Position numbers and translations under genes: made by a program
In this document: one piece after another, positions 10,266-44,828 of the stretch
How the letters are laid out: each line of letters opens with the position of its first letter
Position numbering within the stretch: the first letter of the stretch is position 1
Assembly (NCBI GenBank): GCA_977018835.1
Contig: OZ361261.1
Span: 1,922,001 to 1,986,000 of the forward strand
DNA: 64,000 nt
Source of the DNA: Minutocellus sp. GHC0000111
Taxonomy: Eukaryota
Reading direction: 5' to 3'
The notes under the pieces: model-generated
What the model saw: only the letters and a program-made list of their open reading frames with translations
Databases searched by the model: none
What the model was told of the DNA's origin: nothing

Positions 10266-13200
10266 ATGCGCTTCATCGCGGCGGCCCTCACCGTCCTCCT
10301 CGTGGCGGAGACCGTCCAGGCGTTCGTTCCGGCCTCTCCCTCCGTGGTTTCTCTTTCCGCCTTTTCTGCCAGTTCCAGCGCCCTGTCGGCCACGTACAAG
10401 CTGGGCGAGAACGATCCCAACGACGTCAGCATCCCGTACGATGCCGCCGCCCGTCTGGCCTACGACGAGTGGACCAAATCCTACAACAAACCGTACGACG
10501 CCGCCCGGTACGAAACCTTCAAGGCCAACTACGAGGCGCTGACCGTGGCCAACGTCAAGGCCGCCAAGGCCGCCCGCGAGGCCGGCAGCGACGAACCCCC
10601 CAAGAAGTTGGACCTGAACGAGTACGCCGACATGACCGCCGAGGAGTACATGGCCATGCAGAACGGGGGGGCGGCCAGTAGTACTGGTGGTACCACCGCC
10701 CTCAAGTCGGAGTCCACTGAAGAGGAAAACAGCACGGGAGATGTGCTGGGTCAGGCCGTCGAGGCCGCCGGACTGCAGAACGATGCCAGCTCCGCGTTGG
10801 CCGAGGCGGCCGATGCTCTCGCCGAGGAGGAGGAGGTGCGTTCATTTGGCTTGACTTTGCGTGCACTTTTGAGGGATGTTGATGGGTAGAGTTGGCTTTG
10901 ATTTGGTTGGTGGGGAAAGGAAGTACATGGGCTTAGGCTGATTATGGATCAATGTGGAAGTTGGAAAAGGAGATGAAGGCAAGAAATTGAACTGCAAGGA
11001 ACGAACGAATTAGCATTGACTGCTGCATGTGACTTGTTCGTTCAGGCCTGATGGATGGGTATCCTGGATGCTCATTTGCATTTGCCGGACAATATCTGAA
11101 GATCAATTCATGAAGTGATTTGGTTGGGCCGAATCAATGCATGTTGGGATGTCGAGGTTTTCGTCATTGGCATCACTTATTTCTACTCTGCATCTCAAGC
11201 AAGTATCTGACCCATACACATCATATCATTTCCTCTTACTTCACTTCACTCCTACATCCCATCACAACAGGCTCTCGCCAAGGCCCTTGGTCTGGAGAGC
11301 GTCGAAGAGCTCGAGGTGGCCCTCGATTCCCTCGAGGGCATCGCCGAGGATGGCGGCGAGCTGGATCCCGAGAATCTGTCCCGCGAGGCCCGCGTCCGTT
11401 CCGCGTATCTGGACTGGTGCAAGGAGTTCGACAAGCAGCCCGACGAGGCCCGCTTCCCCCAATTCTCCTCCAACTACCTCGCCATGGAGGCCTACGCCAA
11501 CGAGAATGGCAAGGAGATGACATTGAACAAGTTTGCCGACTGCACCGAGGAGGAGTACGTTCAGATCACCACCGGCAAGGCTCCCGAGCCCAAGGCCGAG
11601 CCGGAGCCCGAGCCCGAGCTGGCCGCCGCTTCTGCTGCTGCTCCCGTGGAGGAGGCCAAGTTGGAAGACGGCATTGATATCAGCATTCCGTACGATGCTG
11701 CTGCCAAGTTGGCGTACGAGTCCTCGGACAAGTCCATGTCGTTTGATGACTTCAAGGTCGAGTATGAGGCCGAAGCCATTGCATTGGTCAAGTCCAAGCA
11801 GGGTGCTCCCGCCCCCGCTCCGGTGGCCAAGGCACCCGCCCCGGCCGCAAAGAAGGCTGCTCCGGTGGCCAAGAAGCCGGCCCCTGCTCCTGCTAAGAAG
11901 GAACCGGAACCCGAGGTGGATACCAAGACACGTCGGGCGCAGCAGGAGAAGGCTGCGGAGAAGCTCCGTGCGGACAACGAGGCGGCTGCTATCGCTGCTG
12001 TCAAGGCCGCTGCCGAGGCTGAGGCTGCCCAGATTGCTAAGCGACGTGCTCTCGATGAAAAGGCGGCTGAGTTGGAGAGGCAAAAGGCCGCCGAGGCAGC
12101 TGAGAAGATTGCCAAGAAGCAGGCCGAGAGAGGTTCTACTATTGTTATTCCTCGGAGGGAGCCTGTTAAGCCCACTCCGCCCCCTCCTGTTGCCGAGGAG
12201 AAGAAGCCTGCTGGAGTTTTGGGTATGTTTGCCAAGCCTGCTGCTCCCAAGGTTGCTGTCAAGAAGCCCGCTGCTCCCAAGGTTGCTGTCAAGAAGCCCG
12301 TCGCTCCTCCTCCTCCTCCCGCTGCCGCGAAGAAGGAGCCTGCTGCCGGAGGTCTGTTCGGTATGTTTGGCGGAGATGCACCCAAGCCCACTGCTAAGAA
12401 GGCCACTCCTCCTCCCAAGGCTCCTGTGAAGAAGGCTGCTCCTGCTCCTGCCCCCGCCAAGGCCGCTGCTCCCGCGCCCGCTTTCCCCTTCTTCGGAGGA
12501 GCTGCCAAGCCCGCTGCTCCCAAGAAGGCCGCCCCCACCCCTGCGCCAAAGGGTAAGTTGTATCGGTGTCGTTGATACATCTCCTTGATATCGTCGCCTT
12601 TTTTGCTTTCATATATCTAATTTTTGTATACCCCCTACCGATCGTTCTGATATTGTAGCACCAGTCAAGGCCGTGCCCAAGGTCACTTCGGAGGATCCTG
12701 TCACCGATGCATTCTCGGCTTTCTTTGGTTCCAAAGCCAAGCCTGCCGCAAAGAAGGCTACCCCTCCTCCTCCTGCTCCAGTACCTGCTCCCAAGCCGGT
12801 ATCTCAAAAGTCTGCTACATTCTCTCTGTTTGGCAACGCCGCACCGAAGAAGGCTGCTGCTCCTGCGCCTGCTCCCGCCAAGGTCGCTCCTGCTGGGCCT
12901 ACCCCAGCGCAGATTGCCGCTGAACGCAAGGCAGCCGCCGAGGCTAAGCGCCAGGAGGCTCTTGCTGCCGCCCAAGCTCGTAAGGTGGAACAGCAGCGAG
13001 TGGCCGCCGAGAGAAAGGCTGCCGCCGAGGCCAAGCGCCAGGAGGCTATCGCTAAGAGGGAGGAACAGGCCCGTATTGCTCAGGAGAAGAGAGCTGCCGC
13101 CGCCGCTGCCGCACAGGCCAAGCGCGAACAGGCTCTCGCTGCCGCAAAGGCTAGAAAGGCCGCTGCTTCTGCTCCTGCCCCCGCTCCTAAGCCCGCGCCA

Positions 13201-14136
13201 GTCAAGAAGTCGCCTACCTTCTCTCTGTTTGGCAATGCTCCTAAGCCTACTCCTCCTCCCGCTCCGGTACAGGCACCCGCCCCGGTTGCGAAAAAGCCCG
13301 CTCCATTCTCGTTCTTCGGCGCTCCAAAGCCTGCTGCCAAGGCACCCGCTCCGGCTCCTCCTGCCCTGAAGGCCCCTGTGAAGCGTTCTCCTACCATCTC
13401 GCTCTTTGGCAATGGCCCCAAGCCCGCTGCAGCAAAGCCTGCTGCTCCTGCTCAGGCCCTTCCCAAGGTCACTTCTGCCCCGAAGGGTGTGCCGACCATT
13501 GTTGGATTCCGAAAGCTCCGAGATGGAAGCGTTACTGGAAAGATCTACGGATCTCCTAGCTTTGAGGATGGCGAGCAACTCACCACCTCGCCCATAACCT
13601 CTGGAACTGTCGCTAACGGCAATCTTGTCCAGACTGGATCTGGTAGCCGGTACTTCTTGAGCGCTACCAAGCCTGGCGGTGCTGCCGCTGCCGCCAAGCC
13701 GGCTGGAGGAGGGTTCTTTGGCAAGCCCGCTGCCAAGAAGGTCGCGCCTCCTCCGGCTGCCGCCGCCAAGCCCGCTCCTGTGAAGCGATCGCCCACTATC
13801 TCTCTCTTTGGCAACGCTGCCCCGAAGAAGGCCGCTCCGGCTCCTCCGGCACCGACCCCCGCTCCCGTCAAGAAGTCCCCAACCTTCTCCCTCTTTGGAA
13901 AGCCCGCTGCCGCACCGAAGAAGAACGGCGCCGCACCGGCCGCTTCCGTTGCTGATGCCAATATTCCTGTCCTCAAAAACTGGGTTCAGAATCCGGATGG
14001 CAGCCTAACGGGCAATGTCAGCAACACCAAGTCGTTCCGTGCTGGTACTGAGATCACGACGTCTCCTGTCCGACGAGGGGCCAAGGCTGGCACTGTTGTG
14101 GCCACTAGCTCTGGCAGCAAATACAAGCTTATGTAA
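10266..14136 (+). CDS. Large plastid-targeted multi-repeat protein (I29 propeptide-inhibitor-like domains, Pro/Ala/Lys-rich linker, C-terminal beta repeats); exons ~10266-10835, 11271-12552, 12659-14136
   Basis: Signal peptide VQA-FV. GT-AG introns restore the frame (EEE|ALAK, PK|APVK). Two 'W.K..K....R...F..NY....N......LN.(Y/F)AD.T.EEY' units, two 'SIPYDAAA.LAY' units and two 'DGS.TG....F..G...TTSP......V.T.SGS.Y.L' units. Confidence 0.85.
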
Positions 14137-17908: not shown

Positions 17909-19121
17909 ATGAGCAAAAAAATGACGGCCGCAATCCCGCAGTCAACACCGCAGACAGAGTTGCGGTGCAGGACGCCCTCTGGCTGAACTGCTCGTCCGTC
18001 TTCGCAGAAAGGAACTTCATTACTACAATTTCATCGGCAACAACAACGACTCCTTGATGAATGTGTTGGGATGCAGTCCCATCACGTGCGGCGCCGTCAT
18101 GCACACTGCGGGCATCTTGGGTTTGAAGAAGAAGAAACACTATGACGACGACGTGTTTTTTGTGAGGACAGACAACCAGAATGGATGGGATGAAATGGCA
18201 TCAAGACACTGCCTTGCCGACGACGTTCAGCGAACCCCATGCAAAAGAGCATGTTTGTTCGCCTCGGCTCTGTCAATCCTCGTGCAGCCGACGCTCTCCA
18301 TGATGATGGATGGATGGCTTTCGACATGGTCACGGTCGAGCAACAACTTCGCCTCGAAATGCCGCCGCCGCGGCTCAATTTGACGAAGGCATGCAATGCA
18401 TTCCTCAAGTCGGTCGCACCACACATGTCGGTGGGACATGCGGCGATGGACTACGAAATCAACAGGCAGATGTTGCTCGAGGCCCAGAAGTTCCCTGGTG
18501 GGTGCAATGGCCAGGACGATGGGTGGGACAATGACGACGATGTTGGGACGGTGGGCACCCTGACCACGACGGAGGCCGGCGAGATCAGTGAGGACGATGA
18601 CGACGAAGACGAGGACTGTGTGCCCTGTTGTGAGAGGACGAAGCTGACATTGCAAGAGAGGACGCCACACATGAAGCATGCATGCAGCAGCACTTTGTGA
18701 GAAGAATCGTCAGAAGCACGGTGATGGCGAGCCAGAGATGGGAGCTGTCGATGATGCCGAGGATGACGATGCCCCTCACTTCCATTTCCTGAAAAAGGCC
18801 GGCATTGAGGCGGCCGACTCAGGTAAAATAAGGGCAGTGCTGGCAGAATGCTGGAGAGCTTTATCTGTTAATGTTTCTGATGGCAACAACAAGAAGAAAC
18901 CAAGGACAACAGAGTTCATCCACCACAACACCTCCACCAAAGGAACTCTCCTAGAGCACAATCGCGAGGAAGATGGCATGACGGATGACGACATCAAAGA
19001 GCTCTGCAAAGCTTGCTCTAATTTGCTCCACACTCTTGACACAATGTGTTCCAGGTTTCTGAAATGGCACATGAAGTGGGATGATGAGGCAAAGGAACTG
19101 ATGACAAGCGCCAACAAATGA
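17909..19121 (+). pseudogene. Degenerate, frameshifted repeat-derived ORF (probable transposable-element remnant), TpA-depleted
   Basis: Several overlapping ORF pieces with frameshifts. A second copy of part of it lies at 40510-40776. Almost no Tyr codons, with excess Cys/His. Confidence 0.55.
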
Positions 19122-20172
19122 TCATGATGGCCACCGATGGAGATGAGGATGTAGAGATGGGAGCAGGGCATGTATAAAATTAGAAAATGAAATTACACTG
19201 CTACTACACAATGACAAATGAATTGCATGGTCCAACTTTTACAAACAGCATCGCGATTGAGCAAAAAAGCAAGTAAATTGTGCACCCAAACAAACACATC
19301 ACGTCCTTCTTAACTCACCCATTTTTATCTCCCAGACCAAAAAGTCCCTTTGTCGGGTTGATTGTTGCATAAACTTATCCCAATACTATCTGTTTCTCCT
19401 CGGGCGCAAAATTGTTGTCGGAATTCCGGGAGGTCGAGTGGGGATGCGATCGGTCGGGATGATCAGCGAGAGTCGGTCATGCGGGGGGTGCGGCGCAATC
19501 CCGGCAGTTCATCATCAACAACAACGTGGGAAAGTACCAGAGGGTCTGGGGCATCACAACGGGAGCACGACGAGCACAAAGACGGAGCAATGGCACCACC
19601 CCAGAGAAACGAACGGCCGACAGATGATGATGGTGGAGGAAAAGTGGGCCGATGGTTCGTGGCGTTGATGCGCAGCGGAGGCCAATCTGAGGATGTGCAG
19701 TGAGCTTCAACTACATCCAAACATGATATAATGAATGCGTATTTGGTACGAAAATATAGTTATACGCCGGCGCAACGCCGACGGACCACCATGGTGTTGG
19801 ACGGTCAAAGAATGGGTGACGAACGAGATTGGGTTTTGGTGGGTTTCTTCGTGACGTGTTCGTCTTCTGCCGAAAAACGCTTCATCCGAAACAAGACGAG
19901 ATGGTGGGGCTGTGTGATCAAGCAAGATGCGATAAAATCTGTCCGTCAACCGGACACAACCGATCTGTCCTTCAACCGGAACCACCACAGACTCAGTACG
20001 AGTAGGTCATACGAGGTCAGATTCGCGAGAAATCGAGCGCCCGGTTTTTGACTGCTTTCGAGGGGATTGAAAAGCGCCTCGAAGAATAGTCATGCTGAAA
20101 TATTTAAGAAAATGGCTATTTTTACTCTAATTTTGATTTATCTTCATGTGAAACAATAATTCGGATATAAGT

Positions 20173-20620
20173 TTAGATTTCAGCGGCTGTAATCAAATGG
20201 TTCGTGCGACGCGACGGTTCGGCCTCCATCTCGTCTTCATCTTGAACGATGGCATGATGCTCGCCTCGGATCGGCAGTACGATGCATTCGTCCCGGATCT
20301 CGCACCACAGCCAATCCGGGATGAGTTTGAGCTTCTTTAGCTCCCGCTTCACGCCGTTGAACTTGTAGATGAAGGTAACTGAGGAGTGGAACATCTCCGC
20401 GGCCTTGTCGTACACCGATTCAGTTATTGCCACGACATCATCCATGTCGAGGGGCATGTTCTCGGCCCTTATCGCCCGGCAGACGAGTCGACTGACGACA
20501 TTGAGGAGCATGTGCTTCTCAAAATCCTCGGGCCCGTCAATCTTGAGAGTTTTCTCCTGGTCAATGATGATGGCCAAGACAGCGGTGAGCATGTGTTCAA
20601 TCCATTTGTGTCGGGCGGAA
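20173..20620 (-). CDS. Unknown helical protein fragment on the antisense strand inside element 1
   Basis: Part of ORF 20173..20790. KWIEHMLTAVLAIIIDQEK...FIYKFNGVKRELKKLKLIPDWLWCEIRDE has natural protein-like composition and ends near the left TIR. Confidence 0.4.
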
Positions 20621-22111
20621 GTCGAAGCTGAGCATTTCGATGACGCGATCGGCATACTTGGACCGGTATACTGCTTCCCAACGAGTGCCGATGATTCATC
20701 TGATTCGGCCGCCTTCCGTTCTGTCATCGACGATCTTGCAACGGCGACCCGGCGGCATACTGCACCATGTCTCTTTGCAATAATTGCCAAGTGCAGGGAG
20801 CAGGCAAAGGTGGACTATTCGGTGCTGTCCAGCGCAGAGCATGGTGCACGATTTTCGGGATGGATGAAGGCGTATGGTGCTCTACCTGCATCTGAGAAGG
20901 CGATGTGGGAGATGAAGAGGAGATCTCATCTGGCTATGCAGCCACACATTCGAGATGTTATTGTTGATGCTCTGATACGAAATCCTCGGGAATCTTGGCG
21001 GGAGCTGGAGGTTGATGTCAACTTTTGGTGTTCCTACTCGGCAATACGGCGGTGGATAATGTCGCGGGAGGGGTTCCGGTACTATGCCGAAAGGATCATC
21101 CCTCTCCTTACTACCCATCAGATGGAGAAACATTTGGTATTTGCGCGGAAATTCCGAAACAATTGGGGGCTCGGCGGTGGCAAGTTTCTCCTTATTATGT
21201 TCGATGAGAAGTGGTTTTGGGGCTTGGTTCTTCGATCGTATGCCAAGCAAGTTGCAGAATTGGGTATTGATCCTCGGTCCTTCTCGGCATATCACCGAAA
21301 TCACATCAACAAGTGCATGGTGGTGGCTGTCACTGCCTTGGCTTTTATTGACAGCATTGAGAATGGCGGCATTGCGTTCAAGCTTGGACGTTTTCGGGCT
21401 CAGGCGCATAAAATTGCGAGGCAGATGGTAAGGGAGGCGGTGCGGCAGGCAGATGGTAGAATCAAATATTGCGGCCCGGTGGTTCGGAAGAAAGACGATC
21501 TATACCTTGTGGATTGCGCGGTGACTGGATGCAGCCATGGCACCCTTGATAATCCCAAGTTCCCACTGAAAGCTTTATTTGAGAACAAGATGTTTCCGGA
21601 TGTTGAGGCTTTGGTCGGACCTGGTGGAAAGTTTGAAGGCTATGTCCCTATTTTTCAGGGCGACAATGCTGGGCCCCATGCCGAGACTGAATTTGTGGAA
21701 TATGTGGAAGGATACTGTCGGGACAAGGGATGGCGTTGGGAACCTCAGGCCCCGCAAATGCCCCATATGAATGTTCTTGATCTGTCTGTTTTCCCTTGCA
21801 TGTCAAAGCGGCATACAATGTTGAGCCGCGATCGGGAGGGGCTGAAGGTTTTGACAGAAGATCAGACTTGGGATGCAGCGGAGGAAGTTTGGATGGGGCT
21901 GGAAAACTGGAAGATCGCATCGGCATACATCCAGGCTCATAGAATTGCAAAGAAGGTAATCGTTGCAAAAGGCAACAATGATTTTCTTGGAAACGGTGAA
22001 GGCATTCATGTTGGGGTGCGAACGGATTTCAGGCCGACTGAAAATGGCATGGTTCGGATAGATGGGAAAATTATCGCTCCTCCTCCTGCTGATCCAACCA
22101 TGGATAATTAG
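20369..22111 (+). CDS. Mariner-like transposase, DD38D, with HMG-box-like and HTH-like N-terminal regions (true start uncertain)
   Basis: FDEKWF / FQGDNAGPH / QAPQMPHMNVLDLSVF correspond to the DEKWF / QQDNA.PH / QPPNSPDLNVLDLGFF blocks of plant-type mariners. 38 residues lie between the 2nd and 3rd Asp. Confidence 0.9.
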   Translation: MKVTEEWNISAALSYTDSVIATTSSMSRGMFSALIARQTSRLTTLRSMCFSKSSGPSILRVFSWSMMMAKTAVSMCSIHLCRAEVEAEHFDDAIGILGPVYCFPTSADDSSDSAAFRSVIDDLATATRRHTAPCLFAIIAKCREQAKVDYSVLSSAEHGARFSGWMKAYGALPASEKAMWEMKRRSHLAMQPHIRDVIVDALIRNPRESWRELEVDVNFWCSYSAIRRWIMSREGFRYYAERIIPLLTTHQMEKHLVFARKFRNNWGLGGGKFLLIMFDEKWFWGLVLRSYAKQVAELGIDPRSFSAYHRNHINKCMVVAVTALAFIDSIENGGIAFKLGRFRAQAHKIARQMVREAVRQADGRIKYCGPVVRKKDDLYLVDCAVTGCSHGTLDNPKFPLKALFENKMFPDVEALVGPGGKFEGYVPIFQGDNAGPHAETEFVEYVEGYCRDKGWRWEPQAPQMPHMNVLDLSVFPCMSKRHTMLSRDREGLKVLTEDQTWDAAEEVWMGLENWKIASAYIQAHRIAKKVIVAKGNNDFLGNGEGIHVGVRTDFRPTENGMVRIDGKIIAPPPADPTMDN

Positions 22112-22356
22112 TCCTGCGGTGCTTTTAAGTTATGTTATGTTTAAAATAATACTAGATTATTTAGATTCGAGCTATATTTGTGCTACTACACACACATGCC
22201 GTACATGCATGTGTAGTGCTCTCTTGTCAGTTTTGATGGTTCCGGCTTTACATGCATGTGTCCGTGTCCGGGTTGCGGACCCAAAAATCGACATTTTTTG
22301 GTCCCGGCCCTGCGCTCGATTTCTCGCGAAACGGACTTGTAGGATTCCTATGAACA

Positions 22357-38481: not shown

Positions 38482-40972
38482 ATGACCAGCGCCCGGCGCA
38501 GAACAAATCGCTCAGGAGGACATGGTGGCAGCACAGAGAGAACAATGAACGAAGGCCAATCTGCCGGTGCCATCTCCTCCGCACTCCAGCCCACCACCCT
38601 CAAAATCATTTGCGCCCTGGCTGGTTTTCTCCTGCACATGCGATCGACATGGAGATGTTACTTCCCCTACGACGACGGTGGGGGTGTGCGGAACAATCCC
38701 GATGTGCTCAACCAGTCCAACGCCAGCGGGTTGGGCGTCGGCGTCATGTCAAAATGGACCGAGGTGTTTCGCAACGATTTCTGGGGCACCAGCATTAGCA
38801 GCCCCCTCACACACAAGAGTTGTCGGCCGATTGTCATCATGAGCTTTCGGATCGACGCCATCATCACTAAATGGGTAGAACGAAACGTGCTGGGCGAAGC
38901 ATGGGTGGAACAAATGGAACACGATGCTGACATTGAGCATAAAGGGGCATGGATGTTCCACGTGACGAATGTTGTGCTTTGTGCACTGGTTTGGTATCTG
39001 GTGGTGGATGTCCTGCTGATGCCAGTCGCCAAGGCGGCAGCTGAAGGATTCATATCAACGCGACGCCAATCCATGAATACGTTGTCGAGGAGTCAATCAT
39101 TGGGAATCCTCTTGGCCGGCCTTTGGTTTGCATCCCACCCAGTCCACGTTGAATGTGTTGCTCAGATTGTCGGAAGAGCGGAGACACTTGCTGCCTTGTT
39201 CTGTCTCGTTGGCACAAAATGCTACAATGTTGCTAAAACGAGTGATAACGTTTTGTCATCCTTGGGAGCCAACATTGGTCTCATGATATCGCTGTTTCTC
39301 GCGTGTCTCTGCAAGGAAACTGCGTGCGTCTTGCCAATTGTTCTTATCGGAACCGACATTGCCGTAGCTGTCTTGGCTCCCTCAAACATAAATGTCAAGG
39401 ACCACATCTGGACCAAGCCATCGTTTCCAACTCTATCATCCATCAGTGCCCTGAGCGTGACGGTTGGCTACCTTGCCTTTCGATCATGGCTCTTTGAGGG
39501 CCGTCAAGATCTGTCACCGCAAAACATTTTGATGTGCGACAACTTTGTTCTGCATTTATCAGGGATGCCAAAGTTGATGACGGCATTGTGTGTTCAAGCC
39601 AAGCATGTACAACTGTTACTCTGGCCCGATGAAGCATCGTCCGATTATTCTCTGGGGGTTGTTGATCCAATTTTCACTTGGTCAGACTCGAACATGGTTT
39701 TATTTTATGGTGTCGCGATGGGCCTAACACTTGCAATTGGATCGGCGTTACAAACATTGATGCAGCGTGGGAATACAGCGCTAGTTCAAGCAATTGGCTG
39801 GACTTTCGCCCCGTTAGTTCCAGCTTCGCATGTTGTGACAATAGGGACGCCCATGGCAGAACGGTTGCTGTTTACGCCGAGCATCGGGGTTGCCATTTTG
39901 ATTTGTTATTTATTTGCGGTTGCGGAGGAACCGGGAGCGCGCTTTGCATCGGGTCGCCAAAGAATGCCGATACAGACCATCATTCTCATTGCAATGGTGG
40001 CAGCATCGACTGCTCGTTTTTCTATTATGACATATCAGAGAGTTCCAGAGTGGGAAGATTCGAAGGCTGTATTTGAAGCTGATGTCAAAAAGTTCCCACA
40101 GTCAGTCAAGTTGAACATGGCACTTGCTCGGGGGTGGTGGGGTGAGACCGCCGAGGAGTCAGCCAAAAGTTATGCGCATGCAATGGCAGCGCAAGAAGTA
40201 GTTGATTTGTATGGAGATGGTTTGAAAGATACGCCATATGTTATCGGGCTCCCGATGATGGCCTTTCAGCATGCACGGACCTCTGCATGGCCAGATGCAG
40301 ACTTGGGCAAAGCTCTTTCATTGGCAAAAAAAATTGAAGAACTAGATGCGCAGCGAAAGATTAGTGCTGACGACATGGCATTCGTCTTGTCCGCGAGGGG
40401 GCAGGAATTTCTCAAATTAGGACTGCCGAAGCAAGAGAAGCAGCTTCTCATTGAAGCCGAGGCTGCATTTCGAGAGGCTGAACGAAATGATGGCACCAAA
40501 AGAGCGCCATGGCTGAACTACTCGTCCGTCTTCGCAGAAAGGAACTTCATTACTACAATTTCATCGGCAACAACAACGACTCCTTGATGAATGTGTTGGG
40601 ATGCAGTCCCATCATGTACGGCGCCGTCATGCACACTGCGGGCATCTTGGGTTTGAAGAAGAAGAAACACGAAGACTGCGATGTGTTTTTTGTGAGAGAG
40701 GACAGACAACCAGAGTGGATGGGATGAAATGGCATCAAGACACTGCCTTGCCGACGACGTTCAGCGAACCCCATGCTGATGTGAGTGATTATGCAAACTT
40801 AATGGGCGAACTTGCGGGATTTAAGAACACAGATGTATCAGCTGCCTCAAAATGGGGCACGGAAGCAAAACGGGCTCTGAGTACAGTTCTATCGCATCCA
40901 GGGCTCCACGAGAAGCCCGGGCACGAGAAATTGTGGCAGACAATGTTGAGTTGGGTTGAATCAAATGTGTAA
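38482..40972 (+). CDS. TMTC-like (DUF1736) protein O-mannosyltransferase, C-terminus interrupted by a captured ~265-bp fragment
   Basis: YDD...RNNP, FRNDFWG, HKSCRP, FHVTNV, FASHPVHVECVAQIVGRAE, LCKET, SSDYS, AERLLFTPSIG, R..EW. The tail resumes after 40776 (ADVSDYAN...WVESNV*). Confidence 0.85.
40510..40776 (+). repeat. Dispersed duplicate of 17980-18242
   Basis: Near-identical sequence tggctgaact...cgaaccccatgc at both loci, with a few substitutions and one 4-nt indel. Confidence 0.95.
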
Positions 40973-41725
40973 AAAATATAAAAGGACAGCATTGCTGGGA
41001 ACTGTTCTATCTAGCTAGAAGCTTAGTCCCTTGGAGATTTGCTGCTGTAGTTGACTTGCTGATGATTTAGACCTACCTACATACGGGAAGCTTCCGGTGT
41101 GTAGTAGTACCTGGCAAGCAACTGAACTCTCCTCCGCGTTCGGTACGAGGTCGCGGACAGCAGTTTCAGGGACCCGGTTTTCGGGTCTTTGGGCAAAATC
41201 TCATAAAAATCAGCACAAACGCACGCAGCAAGCAGCATTTATTTGCCATCGTCCTGTCTTCAAGATGGCGGTGACGGCAGTGCCGATGGCATCCGCTTCA
41301 CGCAAGGGACAAGCGTGGTGTCTCCAGAACGGGTTGGTCCTTGACCTTGGACCGACTCGGAGACATCGATTTCATCTTCCCATGCCAGCGTCTGGCCGAT
41401 TCACCCCATCCATCGCCCCTCCCGACTTCTGCCAGTTTTTCCGATGACAACCGGTCACCTCCTCCACCTCCCGACCCCACCACCACCTCCCAAATGCATT
41501 GATTCAAGTAGCCATGTGGTTTGAGCTCCGACATCGGTCTCCATGGTCCCCACAATGGCGCATCTTATGCGGTCCGGGTGACCCCGCGCCAAAATCGAGC
41601 GGGCCAAAAAAATCATCACCCGCCCGGCGCGCCCTCCACTCAATGAAACCTTCCTCATTTCCAACCCACCCGACATACAAACTGTTGCTCTACTGCCACA
41701 AAATACTGCATCCAACACCATATTA

Positions 41726-43361
41726 ATGCAAATGGCTGTTGCTGCTGCTGCCACCGCAGCTGATGCGCCAGCATGTCGCCGCTCCCGTCGGTCCGGCAGC
41801 TCCATCCCATGCTTTGATTATTTTGTCCATCGGAGCGGCACCATCGATGCCTCTACGATTCGTGGCAAGTCTCCTGGGATGATCCAGACCATAGCGAACC
41901 GGGCATGGGCGGGCCTCTCACTTCAGAAACAGCAGGATGTCATGGAGCAAGCCCGAGAGGAGGAGCTGTGCTGTCCGAGCCAGACCGGTCCTGATCCGGC
42001 ACAAGATGTGCCGATTTCTCAAATTCAAATTGCTCGGCGCAATTCGTCATCCAACATCGCCGATGCCAGCCCTGAGCCGACGGTCGAGGACAATGCTGGT
42101 GTCGCTGCTCGTCCTGGTGATGATGACATCGAAGCTGGGGGCATCGCCGAGTCCATGGTGGTGGATGGAAGCGGCAACAGTGAAGAATCTGGCAATCCTG
42201 CCAGTGTCGGTGTTTCTGCTACCGGCACCGCCAATTCTGGTGGATCGACCGAGGAGAATTTGGATGTGCTGCTGGTTGAGGCCGAAGCGCAATGCAAAGC
42301 TGCAGAGGAGGCTTTGAAAGGGCTAAGGGACACCTTGAAACGAGAAAAGCGGAAGGATGAAAAGGCCATGGCCGATGCCGAGAAGAAAAGGAACAAAATG
42401 AAGGATGAGAACGGCAATTTACCGAATGCGAGTTCTCCTCGTGCATTGCGATGAGAAATGGTTCTGGGGTCTCGTCCTCCGAGCTTTTGCGAAGGCTTGC
42501 GAGGAAATCGGCGTGAAAAAGCGAGATTACGCGGCCTTTCACAGGAGCCACATCAACAAGGTCATGGCCATTGCATTTGTTGCCGCTGTCTTTGACGGTT
42601 CTCTTGAGAGTGGGTGCGAGGTTGTAAAACTGCCACTGGTACGAGCTCAAGCTCCTAAAATAGCGGAGCGAGCTCAGCACGAAGCAGTGTCACAGCCTGA
42701 TGGTTCAACACGGCACCCAAATACCAACCCCGATGGGACACCAAAGGAACCTCTTCGCCGGAAAGGAGAGTCGTTTCTTGTTGATTGTTGCGTTACTGGA
42801 TCGAACGAAGGCACCAAAAAGGATCCGAAATGCTCTTTGCTCCTCGTATTCAAGGAGACTATTTTCCCAGCGATTCTCAACCTTGTCGGTCCGGGCAAGC
42901 AATACGAAGATTGCCATGTTATTATCCAGGGCGACCAGGCCGGGCCTCACGAGGACGGAACCTTCACGCAATTTGTTACTAACTTCTGTGCTGAGCAAGG
43001 CTGGACGTGGCAGCCACAGGCACCGCAGATGCCTCACGCCAACGTCCTTGACTTGAGCGTGTTCCCCGCGATGAGCCGGCGGCACTCGGAATGGGCACGA
43101 AAAATGGTAGGCACCTCCGTCATTTCCACCGACCAGATCTGGGACACTGCCGAGGACGTTTACGATAGCATGCCTAACTGCAAAATTGCTTCGGCCTTCA
43201 TTCAGTACTGGAGGATAATGGGCCTGGTGATTAAGGCCGGTGGTAGCAATGAGTTTGTTGGAAGGTTGGGTGACGAAAACTTGCACACTGGAATTAGGAT
43301 CGACTTCAACGAAACGGCCAAGGGGATGGAGCCCTCAGCTCGTCATCCTTCTAATAAATAG
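41726..43361 (+). pseudogene. Mariner-like DD38D transposase, frameshifted or internally deleted at ~42420
   Basis: ORF 41726..42454 (HMG-box-like segment + coiled coil) overlaps ORF 42405..43361 (CDEKWF, QGDQAGPH, QAPQMPHANVLDLSVF). The HTH/linker region present in element 1 is missing. Confidence 0.85.
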
Positions 43362-43456
43362 ATAGTGTTAATGTCTTTACACATGTATTAAATAAATGTT
43401 ACACGTCTACAAATTATTTATAGATCTACATGTAAGATGCAGCAGCATTGGTTTGT

Positions 43457-44590
43457 TTATGTCACGGTGGGCTTCTTTGTTCTTCTATTTCTACCGGTAT
43501 TCTTTTTTGCCTCCTTGGCCTTCTTATGATCATTAGAAAGCCACACAGCGTGGAGGGACTGACGAATCTTTCCGCGCTTCACACCATATGCATCGGCAAG
43601 TTTATTGTCAGTGAGGTCAGGGTGAGCAGTTGGTTGTTTACTCCCATCCTCATATCCCAACTTATATGCATCTAATGCAATCTTGTCAGTAGATAATGCA
43701 ATAGAGAATTCTATTGTCTTGTTATCATACAATCCGAGTTCTCTGCTTCTCCACCCTTTCGGGTAGGCACCACGACCCTCTCTTACTTGGCGATCGACTT
43801 CGATCATGCCTAGCACTGTGGTGACCGCGACCTCGCTACCCCAACCAGGAACTTGTTTGAAGGGGAGGTAGACCCCTTTCTCTTTTCTTCTTGGTTCGGG
43901 CCTCTGACTACATGTGGGTGACTTGTAGTTCTTTATATCTTGTGGTAGTGGTGCTTCTCCGTACGTCAAAAAGCACGCAAGCCTCCGATGTTCCTCAACC
44001 TCTCGTTCAATCTGTCGTTCGGTTGGTTCGGTTGGAGGCAAGGGCTCCAAGATGGTAGGGGATGACAATTGAAGGTTGCTGAACGACGGGCATGAGCGGC
44101 TTGGGGTAAGAGCATACTGAGTATGAACTGACATTGGACTTGTTACCATGGGCGTGGCGGAGGGAAGGTCGAATGAGCTCACGGGCTTTCTCCTCTCGCC
44201 GCTTGGCTTTGCGTCGGCGGTTGCTATGCTCATCTCTGAGAATGAATCATCTTCATCAGAATGAGATGAAACGGTAGCGGTACCGCGAAAGTCGGCACGC
44301 AATATGTCATGATGCAAGTACTTCCTTGCTTGGGCTTGTTCGGCGGCGAAGCCATCCTCTTCGTTGTACTCGCGTCGATATTTCAACACACGAGGAGATG
44401 TGAGGTCTGACGATGCCGGTGGGACCCCTTGGTTGTCCTCCTCGTCATCGTTGTCCTTGTTCTCTCGATACCGCGGATGTTCCGGCGGAACGGAAGTTTC
44501 CTTCTCATGGCGCGAGGGGCTGAATGCAGTCGCCTCGGCGCATTTCGGTGGACGCGGTGGACTGAAGATGTGTCCCTTTGGAGTATCCAT
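43457..44590 (-). CDS. Unknown cargo/accessory protein inside element 2 (~377 aa; disordered N-half, folded C-half, basic NLS-like tail)
   Basis: Uninterrupted ORF from MDTPKG, lying entirely between the TIRs and convergent with the transposase. Confidence 0.7.
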   Translation of the reverse strand: MDTPKGHIFSPPRPPKCAEATAFSPSRHEKETSVPPEHPRYRENKDNDDEEDNQGVPPASSDLTSPRVLKYRREYNEEDGFAAEQAQARKYLHHDILRADFRGTATVSSHSDEDDSFSEMSIATADAKPSGERRKPVSSFDLPSATPMVTSPMSVHTQYALTPSRSCPSFSNLQLSSPTILEPLPPTEPTERQIEREVEEHRRLACFLTYGEAPLPQDIKNYKSPTCSQRPEPRRKEKGVYLPFKQVPGWGSEVAVTTVLGMIEVDRQVREGRGAYPKGWRSRELGLYDNKTIEFSIALSTDKIALDAYKLGYEDGSKQPTAHPDLTDNKLADAYGVKRGKIRQSLHAVWLSNDHKKAKEAKKNTGRNRRTKKPTVT

Positions 44591-44828
44591 GAGTATGGAA
44601 GCTTCTTGAAGCGCCAGTCGGCAGAAGTTGCCCAGTCTATTTGTGGTAATTGCTTGGAGGTCGGTTGTTGACGGATTTGTTTTGTTTTGCTTGCTTTGCC
44701 ACGTGTTTTTCAAGGTGGGCGCAAACCGCCGTGTCGGAAAGTCCAAAGACCCAAAAAACCGGGTCCCCGAAATTGCTGTCCCGGACCTCGTAGGAGACAC
44801 CCGGAGGATGTGATGACCTCGCCAAAAG

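Follow-up and report, generated by a model that had tools for sequence, protein, structure and literature searches.

A 64,000-nucleotide stretch of the Minutocellus sp. GHC0000111 genome (contig OZ361261.1 of GCA_977018835.1, positions 1,922,001 to 1,986,000), hereafter the window, holds two Tc1/mariner elements, termed element 1 and element 2. They belong to a PlantMar-related clade with a DD38D catalytic triad, in which 38 residues separate the second and third catalytic Asp. The transposase of this clade carries a predicted divergent HMG box ahead of its second helix-turn-helix (HTH), which probably (we put the probability at about 0.6) binds and bends the terminal inverted repeat (TIR). 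Both window copies are internal deletion derivatives, neither of which contains a complete transposase gene; intact relatives encode proteins of 750-1000 amino acids.

The predicted transposase and its internal HMG-like box

The AlphaFold model of one relative, P0002, computed with 53 sequences (predicted local distance difference test, pLDDT, of 80.8), comprises a long helix (residues 82-122), a β-barrel (146-212) and a helical domain (245-353) ending in a probable HTH. Next come three helices (390-446), the domain matched by Pfam HTH_Tnp_Tc3_2 and, last, the catalytic domain. The predicted order is a coiled coil, an SH3/Tudor-like barrel, a probable first HTH, an HMG-like box, the second HTH and a Mos1-like catalytic domain. 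The modelled catalytic domain adopts an RNase H-type DDD/E fold of the Mos1/Sleeping Beauty type, with Metnase, Mos1 and Sleeping Beauty as top matches (VIA Z 18.1, 17.4 and 15.9; Foldseek E 1e-8). The RED-like HTH directly before it corresponds to residues 75-131 of Tc3 (1u78), and the PAI-like first HTH is predicted from helices 328-335 and 340-353 around a conserved WG. The barrel (L001 1331-1546) occurs family-wide and in the sister clade, and has been lost from both window copies; its structural matches are Tudor, KOW and PWWP folds, with VIA Z scores that reach 8.0 and are tied across numerous SH3-like folds. Neither the barrel nor the first helical domain gave a significant profile match, and the N-terminal region gave no usable match in the ESM Atlas.

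The internal segment before the second HTH very likely adopts the HMG fold, as judged from profiles and models. In a set of 106 homologs, 73 proteins have 170 residues or more ahead of the first Asp (D1), and 72 of these contain it, the sole miss being the element-2 deletion product. Its aromatic core, in helices 1, 2 and 3, has F/Y in 35/35, W/Y/F in 35/35 and W in 32/35 segments, and aligns with that of NHP6A and TFAM in profile matches. With a profile of these 35 segments, the 15 best of 19 PDB rows were HMG boxes (TFAM, E 0.0017; NHP6A, E 0.008); 11 rows are TFAM constructs, and five distinct proteins are represented. The 75-residue segment was modelled as an L-shaped three-helix fold (pLDDT 84.7), for which HMG boxes fill the top 5 and 28 of the 42 listed Foldseek rows. 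They also fill the top 28 of 48,161 chains in VIA (best Z 7.1, root-mean-square deviation 2.3 over 64 residues), including ranks 5 and 22, which we take to be HMG boxes. The HHalign score of 22.0 compares with 9.6 for the reversed profile and at most 13.1 in 60 column-shuffled ones. The likeness extends to TFAM (box B), NHP6A, HMGB1/2 and SOX/LEF1 boxes, which share the predicted L shape and the aromatic core and give the best profile and structure matches; unlike these, the internal segment stays under the Pfam cut-off, lacks a basic PKRP-type strand and has a longer loop between helices 1 and 2.

As the segment had been chosen after the alignment was seen, an untrimmed profile of the sister clade is a stronger test. 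The full-length profile of 18 sister-clade proteins gave HMG boxes in the first 12 of 15 PDB rows (TFAM, E 0.0015), with the HMG match at 198-287 followed by the second HTH of Tc3 at 300-356. HHalign related the sister segment to that of element 1 with a probability of 96.6% and to canonical boxes with 92%. This sister subclade (P0156-P0242) is DD38D with an SPxTN-type motif, and its internal HMG-like box is closer to canonical ones.

Some members carry a canonical N-terminal HMG box beside the internal one (P0006, P0008, P0084 and P0107; Pfam E 1e-14 to 1e-17, PF00505 54-65 bits against a gathering score of 25.4). Among proteins of 535-1705 amino acids, the search for the source of this box returned only the fusions themselves. 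The sequence-only reading had quoted one helical segment upstream of the triad in each element as fitting an HMG-box pattern. Both segments are indeed present; the pattern held for element 1 through profiles, structure prediction and the sister clade, and for element 2 in weak form only. Nor are the two counterparts of one domain, an assignment we rejected, as the first is internal and the second lies at the extreme N-terminus. There, element 2 scored 20.9 in HHalign, where 60 shuffles reached no more than 17.0 and the reversed control 12.8, a weak match; profile matches to LEF1 (E 0.14) and TFAM (0.6) are weak as well, and Pfam gave none. In the tree, P0084 and element 2 fall together (support 0.92), and the segment is plausibly a decayed second HMG box.

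In the mechanism we favor, the box, flanked by the second HTH and a probable first one, would bind the minor groove and bend the TIR in cis, thus performing the job done in Sleeping Beauty by the AT-hook linker and host HMGB1. The available text of PMC7827188 describes the PAI and RED HTHs of Sleeping Beauty as joined by a linker, a GRRR AT-hook in its DNA-binding domain, and bending of the inner repeat by host HMGB1, which helps synapsis. Since element 1 lacks the first HTH and element 2 the whole DNA-binding arm, we infer that the window copies would be moved in trans by intact parents.

Several observations count against this proposal. Pfam has no match in the segment of element 1 itself; HMG_box matches occur in 5 of 35 segments, the best at E 0.029 and under the cut-off, and the gathering scores of PF00505/PF09011 are not reached (P0072, HMG_box_2, 18.5 bits against 22.4). 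An untrimmed profile built from 53 close relatives matched neither an HMG box nor a transposase in the PDB. For the segment model, Foldseek E values are 1.7 or worse, and the VIA Z of 7.1 falls below the threshold (8) under which the tool cautions about small helical folds. A short helix replaces the basic extended leading strand of canonical boxes, and the net charge runs from -5 to +7, with 26 of 35 segments basic and 9 neutral or acidic. The first HTH has single weak Pfam matches in 26 members and no PDB match. Moreover, the TIRs of the family are simple and short, unlike the inverted-repeat/direct-repeat (IR/DR) ends of Sleeping Beauty where HMGB1 works.

The modest individual scores and the negative full profile of the 53 relatives would suit a generic three-helix linker that merely resembles an HMG box, which we consider very unlikely, because HMG boxes were ranked first by four methods and in two subclades, and because the reversed and column-shuffled controls scored lower. 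An HMG-derived box that no longer binds DNA, serving as a spacer or as a dimerization surface in the transpososome, would agree with the replaced basic strand, the charge range and the sub-threshold Pfam scores, as well as with the gain of a second canonical box in some lineages. We regard this as unlikely, given that the aromatic core is retained in both subclades, most segments are basic, the box adjoins the second HTH, and the boxes of the sister clade lie nearer the canonical form. It is likewise unlikely that the box works on target DNA or chromatin, either by pre-bending the TA site or by guiding nucleosomal insertion together with the Tudor-like barrel. The Mos1 target is kinked by 147 degrees, the strongest bend being needed for TA insertion (PMC6900584, in the part available), and the barrel does resemble Tudor/KOW/PWWP folds; against this, the box sits between the probable TIR-binding HTHs, the barrel matches are tied, and no sequence profile names the barrel. 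Bending of DNA by the internal box is the function we hold to be probable.

Motifs and placement of the family

Both elements read DEKW, 152 or 160 residues, GD(N/Q)AGPH, 38 residues and QAPQMPH(M/A)NVLD. The DD38D spacing, the QMPH(M/A)N block in place of SPDLN and the long region between the first two Asp (152 residues in element 1, 160 in element 2), all claimed from the sequence alone, were thus confirmed. Two homolog searches yielded 106 proteins and 1214 representatives (E 0.001 or better; 150 of them listed), respectively; a census of 249 sequences was drawn from the hits of both, from elements 1 and 2 and from two further loci outside the window. All three motifs were parsed in 121 of them, and the other 128 lack one motif and are mostly fragments. 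Among the 121, 107 are DD38D, 3 are DD39D, 9 have other spacings (including L083) and 2 are mis-parsed; QMPH is found in 80, SP-type motifs in the sister subclade and SPDL in L083 alone. With such frequencies, the combination of DD38D and QMPH is not a chance one. The D1-D2 interval is mostly 150-160 residues in the clade and 115 in L083. Named hosts of the family are the diatoms Cylindrotheca closterium and Nitzschia inconspicua. Relatives were found neither in viral contigs nor in plasmids.

A FastTree phylogeny was built from 83 catalytic domains over 255 columns, after thinning of the parsed sequences at a similarity of 0.72. It resolved a (Q/H)MPH-type clade (61 sequences, support 0.96) and its SP-type sister (20 sequences, 0.945), joined at 0.92. 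The two outgroups, the PlantMar-like L083 and one IS630-like sequence, fall outside the clade and are too few to place it. L083 is a 1115-bp contig of a GTDB metagenome-assembled genome that encodes a eukaryote-type, PlantMar-like transposase (DD59D, SPDLNVLDLG) and is likely contamination. It was the one PlantMar-like sequence among 11 GTDB matches to reference families; in viral contigs, the reference-family patterns retrieved 0, 0, 0, 0 and 1 locus, and further searches of this kind returned nothing.

PlantMar elements end in CTCCCTCC. The definition of PlantMar specifies a DD39D triad, a length of 2-6 kb and hosts among plants and oomycetes (PMC7325037, available sections). The present family shares with PlantMar/DD39D (Guest) a DDxD triad, DEKWF at the first Asp, short TIRs, a length within 2-6 kb (intact loci span 2.3-3.7 kb between TIRs), the TA target and an occurrence in stramenopiles. 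It differs in its 38 rather than 39 residues between the second and third Asp (D2 and D3), in having QMPH or SPxTN where PlantMar has SPDLN (the NSPDLNVLDL block ascribed to plant mariners in the sequence-only reading is absent), in the 150-160 residues between D1 and D2, in its 750-1000-residue proteins with barrel and HMG-like box, and probably in its TA|CGAG[G/C]T ends. With Mos1/Hsmar1 (Metnase, DD34D) it has in common the catalytic fold, the HTH that precedes it, simple TIRs and insertion at TA; unlike these, it is more than twice as long, with a large D1-D2 insertion, added N-terminal domains and the HMG-like box. Sleeping Beauty (Tc1) has the same superfamily and fold (Z 15.9) and also employs HMG-box bending in synapsis (PMC7827188, available text), but there a host protein is drawn to the IR/DR ends, whereas here the box is encoded by the transposase and the ends are simple.

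A clade nested within PlantMar/DD39D as an algal branch, perhaps already in Repbase, would be consistent with the common DEKWF and N-x-x-D ending, with the SP retained in the sister subclade, and with the Pseudo-nitzschia and Fistulifera sequences in the published PlantMar tree (PMC7325037, available sections). We think this somewhat unlikely, since 107 of 121 sequences are DD38D and 3 DD39D, and the D1-D2 interval is longer than in L083, which itself lies outside the clade (support 0.92). The suggestion of an undescribed stramenopile clade stands in part: no description was found in the literature searched and both spacing and motif differ from DD39D; the only named hosts are two diatoms, and the same published tree already includes three diatom sequences (PMC7325037).

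In sources other than Repbase and subscription papers, the literature search returned neither a DD38D algal family nor an HMG box inside a Tc1/mariner transposase. The label 'DD38D/IT' presumably denotes DD38E Intruder. It names an animal family in the available part of PMC9219625, the single pertinent paper among those listed to use the term DD38D, and was rejected as the present one. Nothing further on the family came from the accessible parts of PMC12477816 and PMC11544213 or from a search for terms in PMC12730594.

The two deletion derivatives in the window

The features of element 1 are as follows:
20012 to 22339, plus strand: element 1, an internally deleted DD38D Tc1/mariner element, likely non-autonomous (inverted arms, empty site, deletion relative to L001)
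20012 to 20040, plus strand: left TIR, starting CGAGGTC (family-wide start TA|CGAG[G/C]T)
20173 to 20659, minus strand: 3' portion of a second open reading frame (ORF2) in divergent orientation, function unassigned, its start removed by the deletion
20660 to 22111, plus strand: 5'-truncated transposase, equivalent to P0002 residues 357-831 (85% identity)
20711 to 20935, plus strand: internal HMG-like box, three predicted helices and a short leading helix
20960 to 21160, plus strand: second HTH (Pfam HTH_Tnp_Tc3_2, E 9e-6)
21203 to 21781, plus strand: catalytic triad D(152)D(38)D, with D1 at 21203, D2 at 21662, QMPH at 21755-21766 and D3 at 21779
22312 to 22339, minus strand: right TIR, its outermost bases degenerate here (other copies terminate CTCG|TA)

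Those of element 2, which lies outside the coordinates given in the sequence-only reading (20012 to 22339), are:
41146 to 44790, plus strand: element 2, of a second subfamily, internally deleted (inverted arms, empty site, deletion relative to L008 and P0284)
41774 to 41995, plus strand: N-terminal HMG-like segment, weak and possibly decayed, at the same position as the canonical boxes of P0006/P0008/P0084
42402 to 43361, plus strand: catalytic domain, now adjoining the N-terminal part, the deletion having removed the barrel, the two HTHs and the internal HMG-like box
43362 to 44754, no strand: long 3' arm, ~1 kb longer than in the relative L008

Element 1 is bounded by TA at 20010-11 and 22340-41, with inverted arms at 20016-20040 and 22312-22336; element 2 by TA at 41144-45 and 44791-92, with arms at 41144-41181 and 44755-44792. 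TIRs with a TA target duplication are thus found, as in Tc1/mariner elements generally. Sequence comparison identified element 1 as L001 minus bases ~707-1971. Its alignment to P0002 begins only at residue 357, so that ~355 N-terminal residues are gone. Its catalytic domain contains QAPQMPHMNVLD. A single-sequence PDB search with element 1 found neither transposases nor HMG boxes. The transposase frame is open from 20369, and the stretch before 20660 is antisense ORF2 DNA; the 580-residue frame was rejected as a real protein, as its first 97 residues are antisense ORF2 and the frame varies between copies. Contigs of RNA libraries cover element 1, a coverage that does not demonstrate transcription.

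ORF2 is complete in L001, where it encodes 205 amino acids. The part in element 1 is 57% identical to L001 827-210 and 56% to L005, and differences fall as 21/15/41 on the three codon positions over 117 codons, with 6 homologs. It is confined to the subfamily of element 1 (2/79 loci) and conserved at the protein level; Pfam gave no match and the ESM Atlas no usable one. An origin as a host fragment picked up by this copy was ruled out by its presence in the intact relative L001.

The catalytic domain of element 2 is ~48% identical to that of the subfamily of element 1. D1, D2 and D3 lie at 42450, 42933 and 43050 (DD38D, 160 residues between D1 and D2), and the domain contains QAPQMPHANVLD. Compared with its parent P0284, residues ~250-663 are gone (~410 internal residues), which takes away the barrel, the two HTHs and the internal box. 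A further 8 bases, present in other copies, are missing at 42427. The 3' arm (43362-44790) has a minus-strand open frame of more than 440 codons, which is absent from L008 and has no Pfam match.

Elsewhere in the window, a 263-bp repeat (95% identical) is located upstream of each element, at 17980-18242 and 40510-40776. TpA observed/expected is 0.17 in 18001-19000, for which reason the repeat region is probably another decayed repeat. A gene at 11211-14136 has Pro/Ala/Lys-rich repeats and a recurrent S-P-T-F-S-L-F-G-like unit.

Copies, decay and significance of the family

Public contigs of one sample, in two runs (X1 and X5), join the flanks across a single TA at both sites, 20009 to 22340 for element 1 (X1/X5) and 41142 to 44790 for element 2 (X5); hence each insertion is polymorphic and was targeted to TA. 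Both deletion derivatives are multi-copy on many megabase contigs, in clusters of 146 and 35 members, of which 15 were listed each. Contig depth is ~10,000 and 17,000 for element 1 against 96 and 158 at its empty site (X1/X5), and ~20,000 for element 2 against 140-230. Taken with the cluster lists, these ratios suggest ~100 copies of each, a depth not being itself a copy number. Nine loci have both ends TA|CGAG[G/C]T, 2.3-3.7 kb apart. Despite the deletion, several copies of both derivatives (P0001, P0255, P0258, P0259, P0264 and the P0098 type) keep long open frames and an intact triad. The truncated product of such derivatives may be inhibitory or have no effect.

Copies of both elements (P0252-P0332) decay through TpA to CpA/TpG changes. 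Among them Tyr changes most often, at 0.09 and 0.21 per site, with Y>H and Y>C foremost, and of the 23 transition sites listed for element 2, 17 are TA versus CA/TG (one ambiguous) and 5 are of CpG type. A signature of this kind has been published for Bigelowiella natans (bioRxiv 10.64898/2026.01.13.699255, available portion).

Tc1/mariner transposases are known as compact proteins, ~340 residues long, that combine two HTHs with a catalytic domain and for which host HMGB1 helps bending (PMC7827188, available text). Here, the family-wide domain architecture is real and was not found in the literature searched, the chemistry is ordinary, and the bending mechanism is a proposed one. More tentatively, and short of what we would favor, this may be an unnamed, widespread and recently active algal Tc1/mariner family, sister to PlantMar, with a true bending HMG box for linker, a Tudor-like chromatin reader and repeated capture of a second, canonical box, which would make it independent of host HMGB and possibly chromatin-targeted. 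With a bending fold encoded in cis, the part that bending plays in synapsis and target capture could be tested by deleting or swapping the domain. The polymorphic insertions and intact parents make the family a candidate native transposon tool for diatoms, and it bears on the origin of PlantMar, left open in the available sections of Dupeyron 2020 (PMC7325037).

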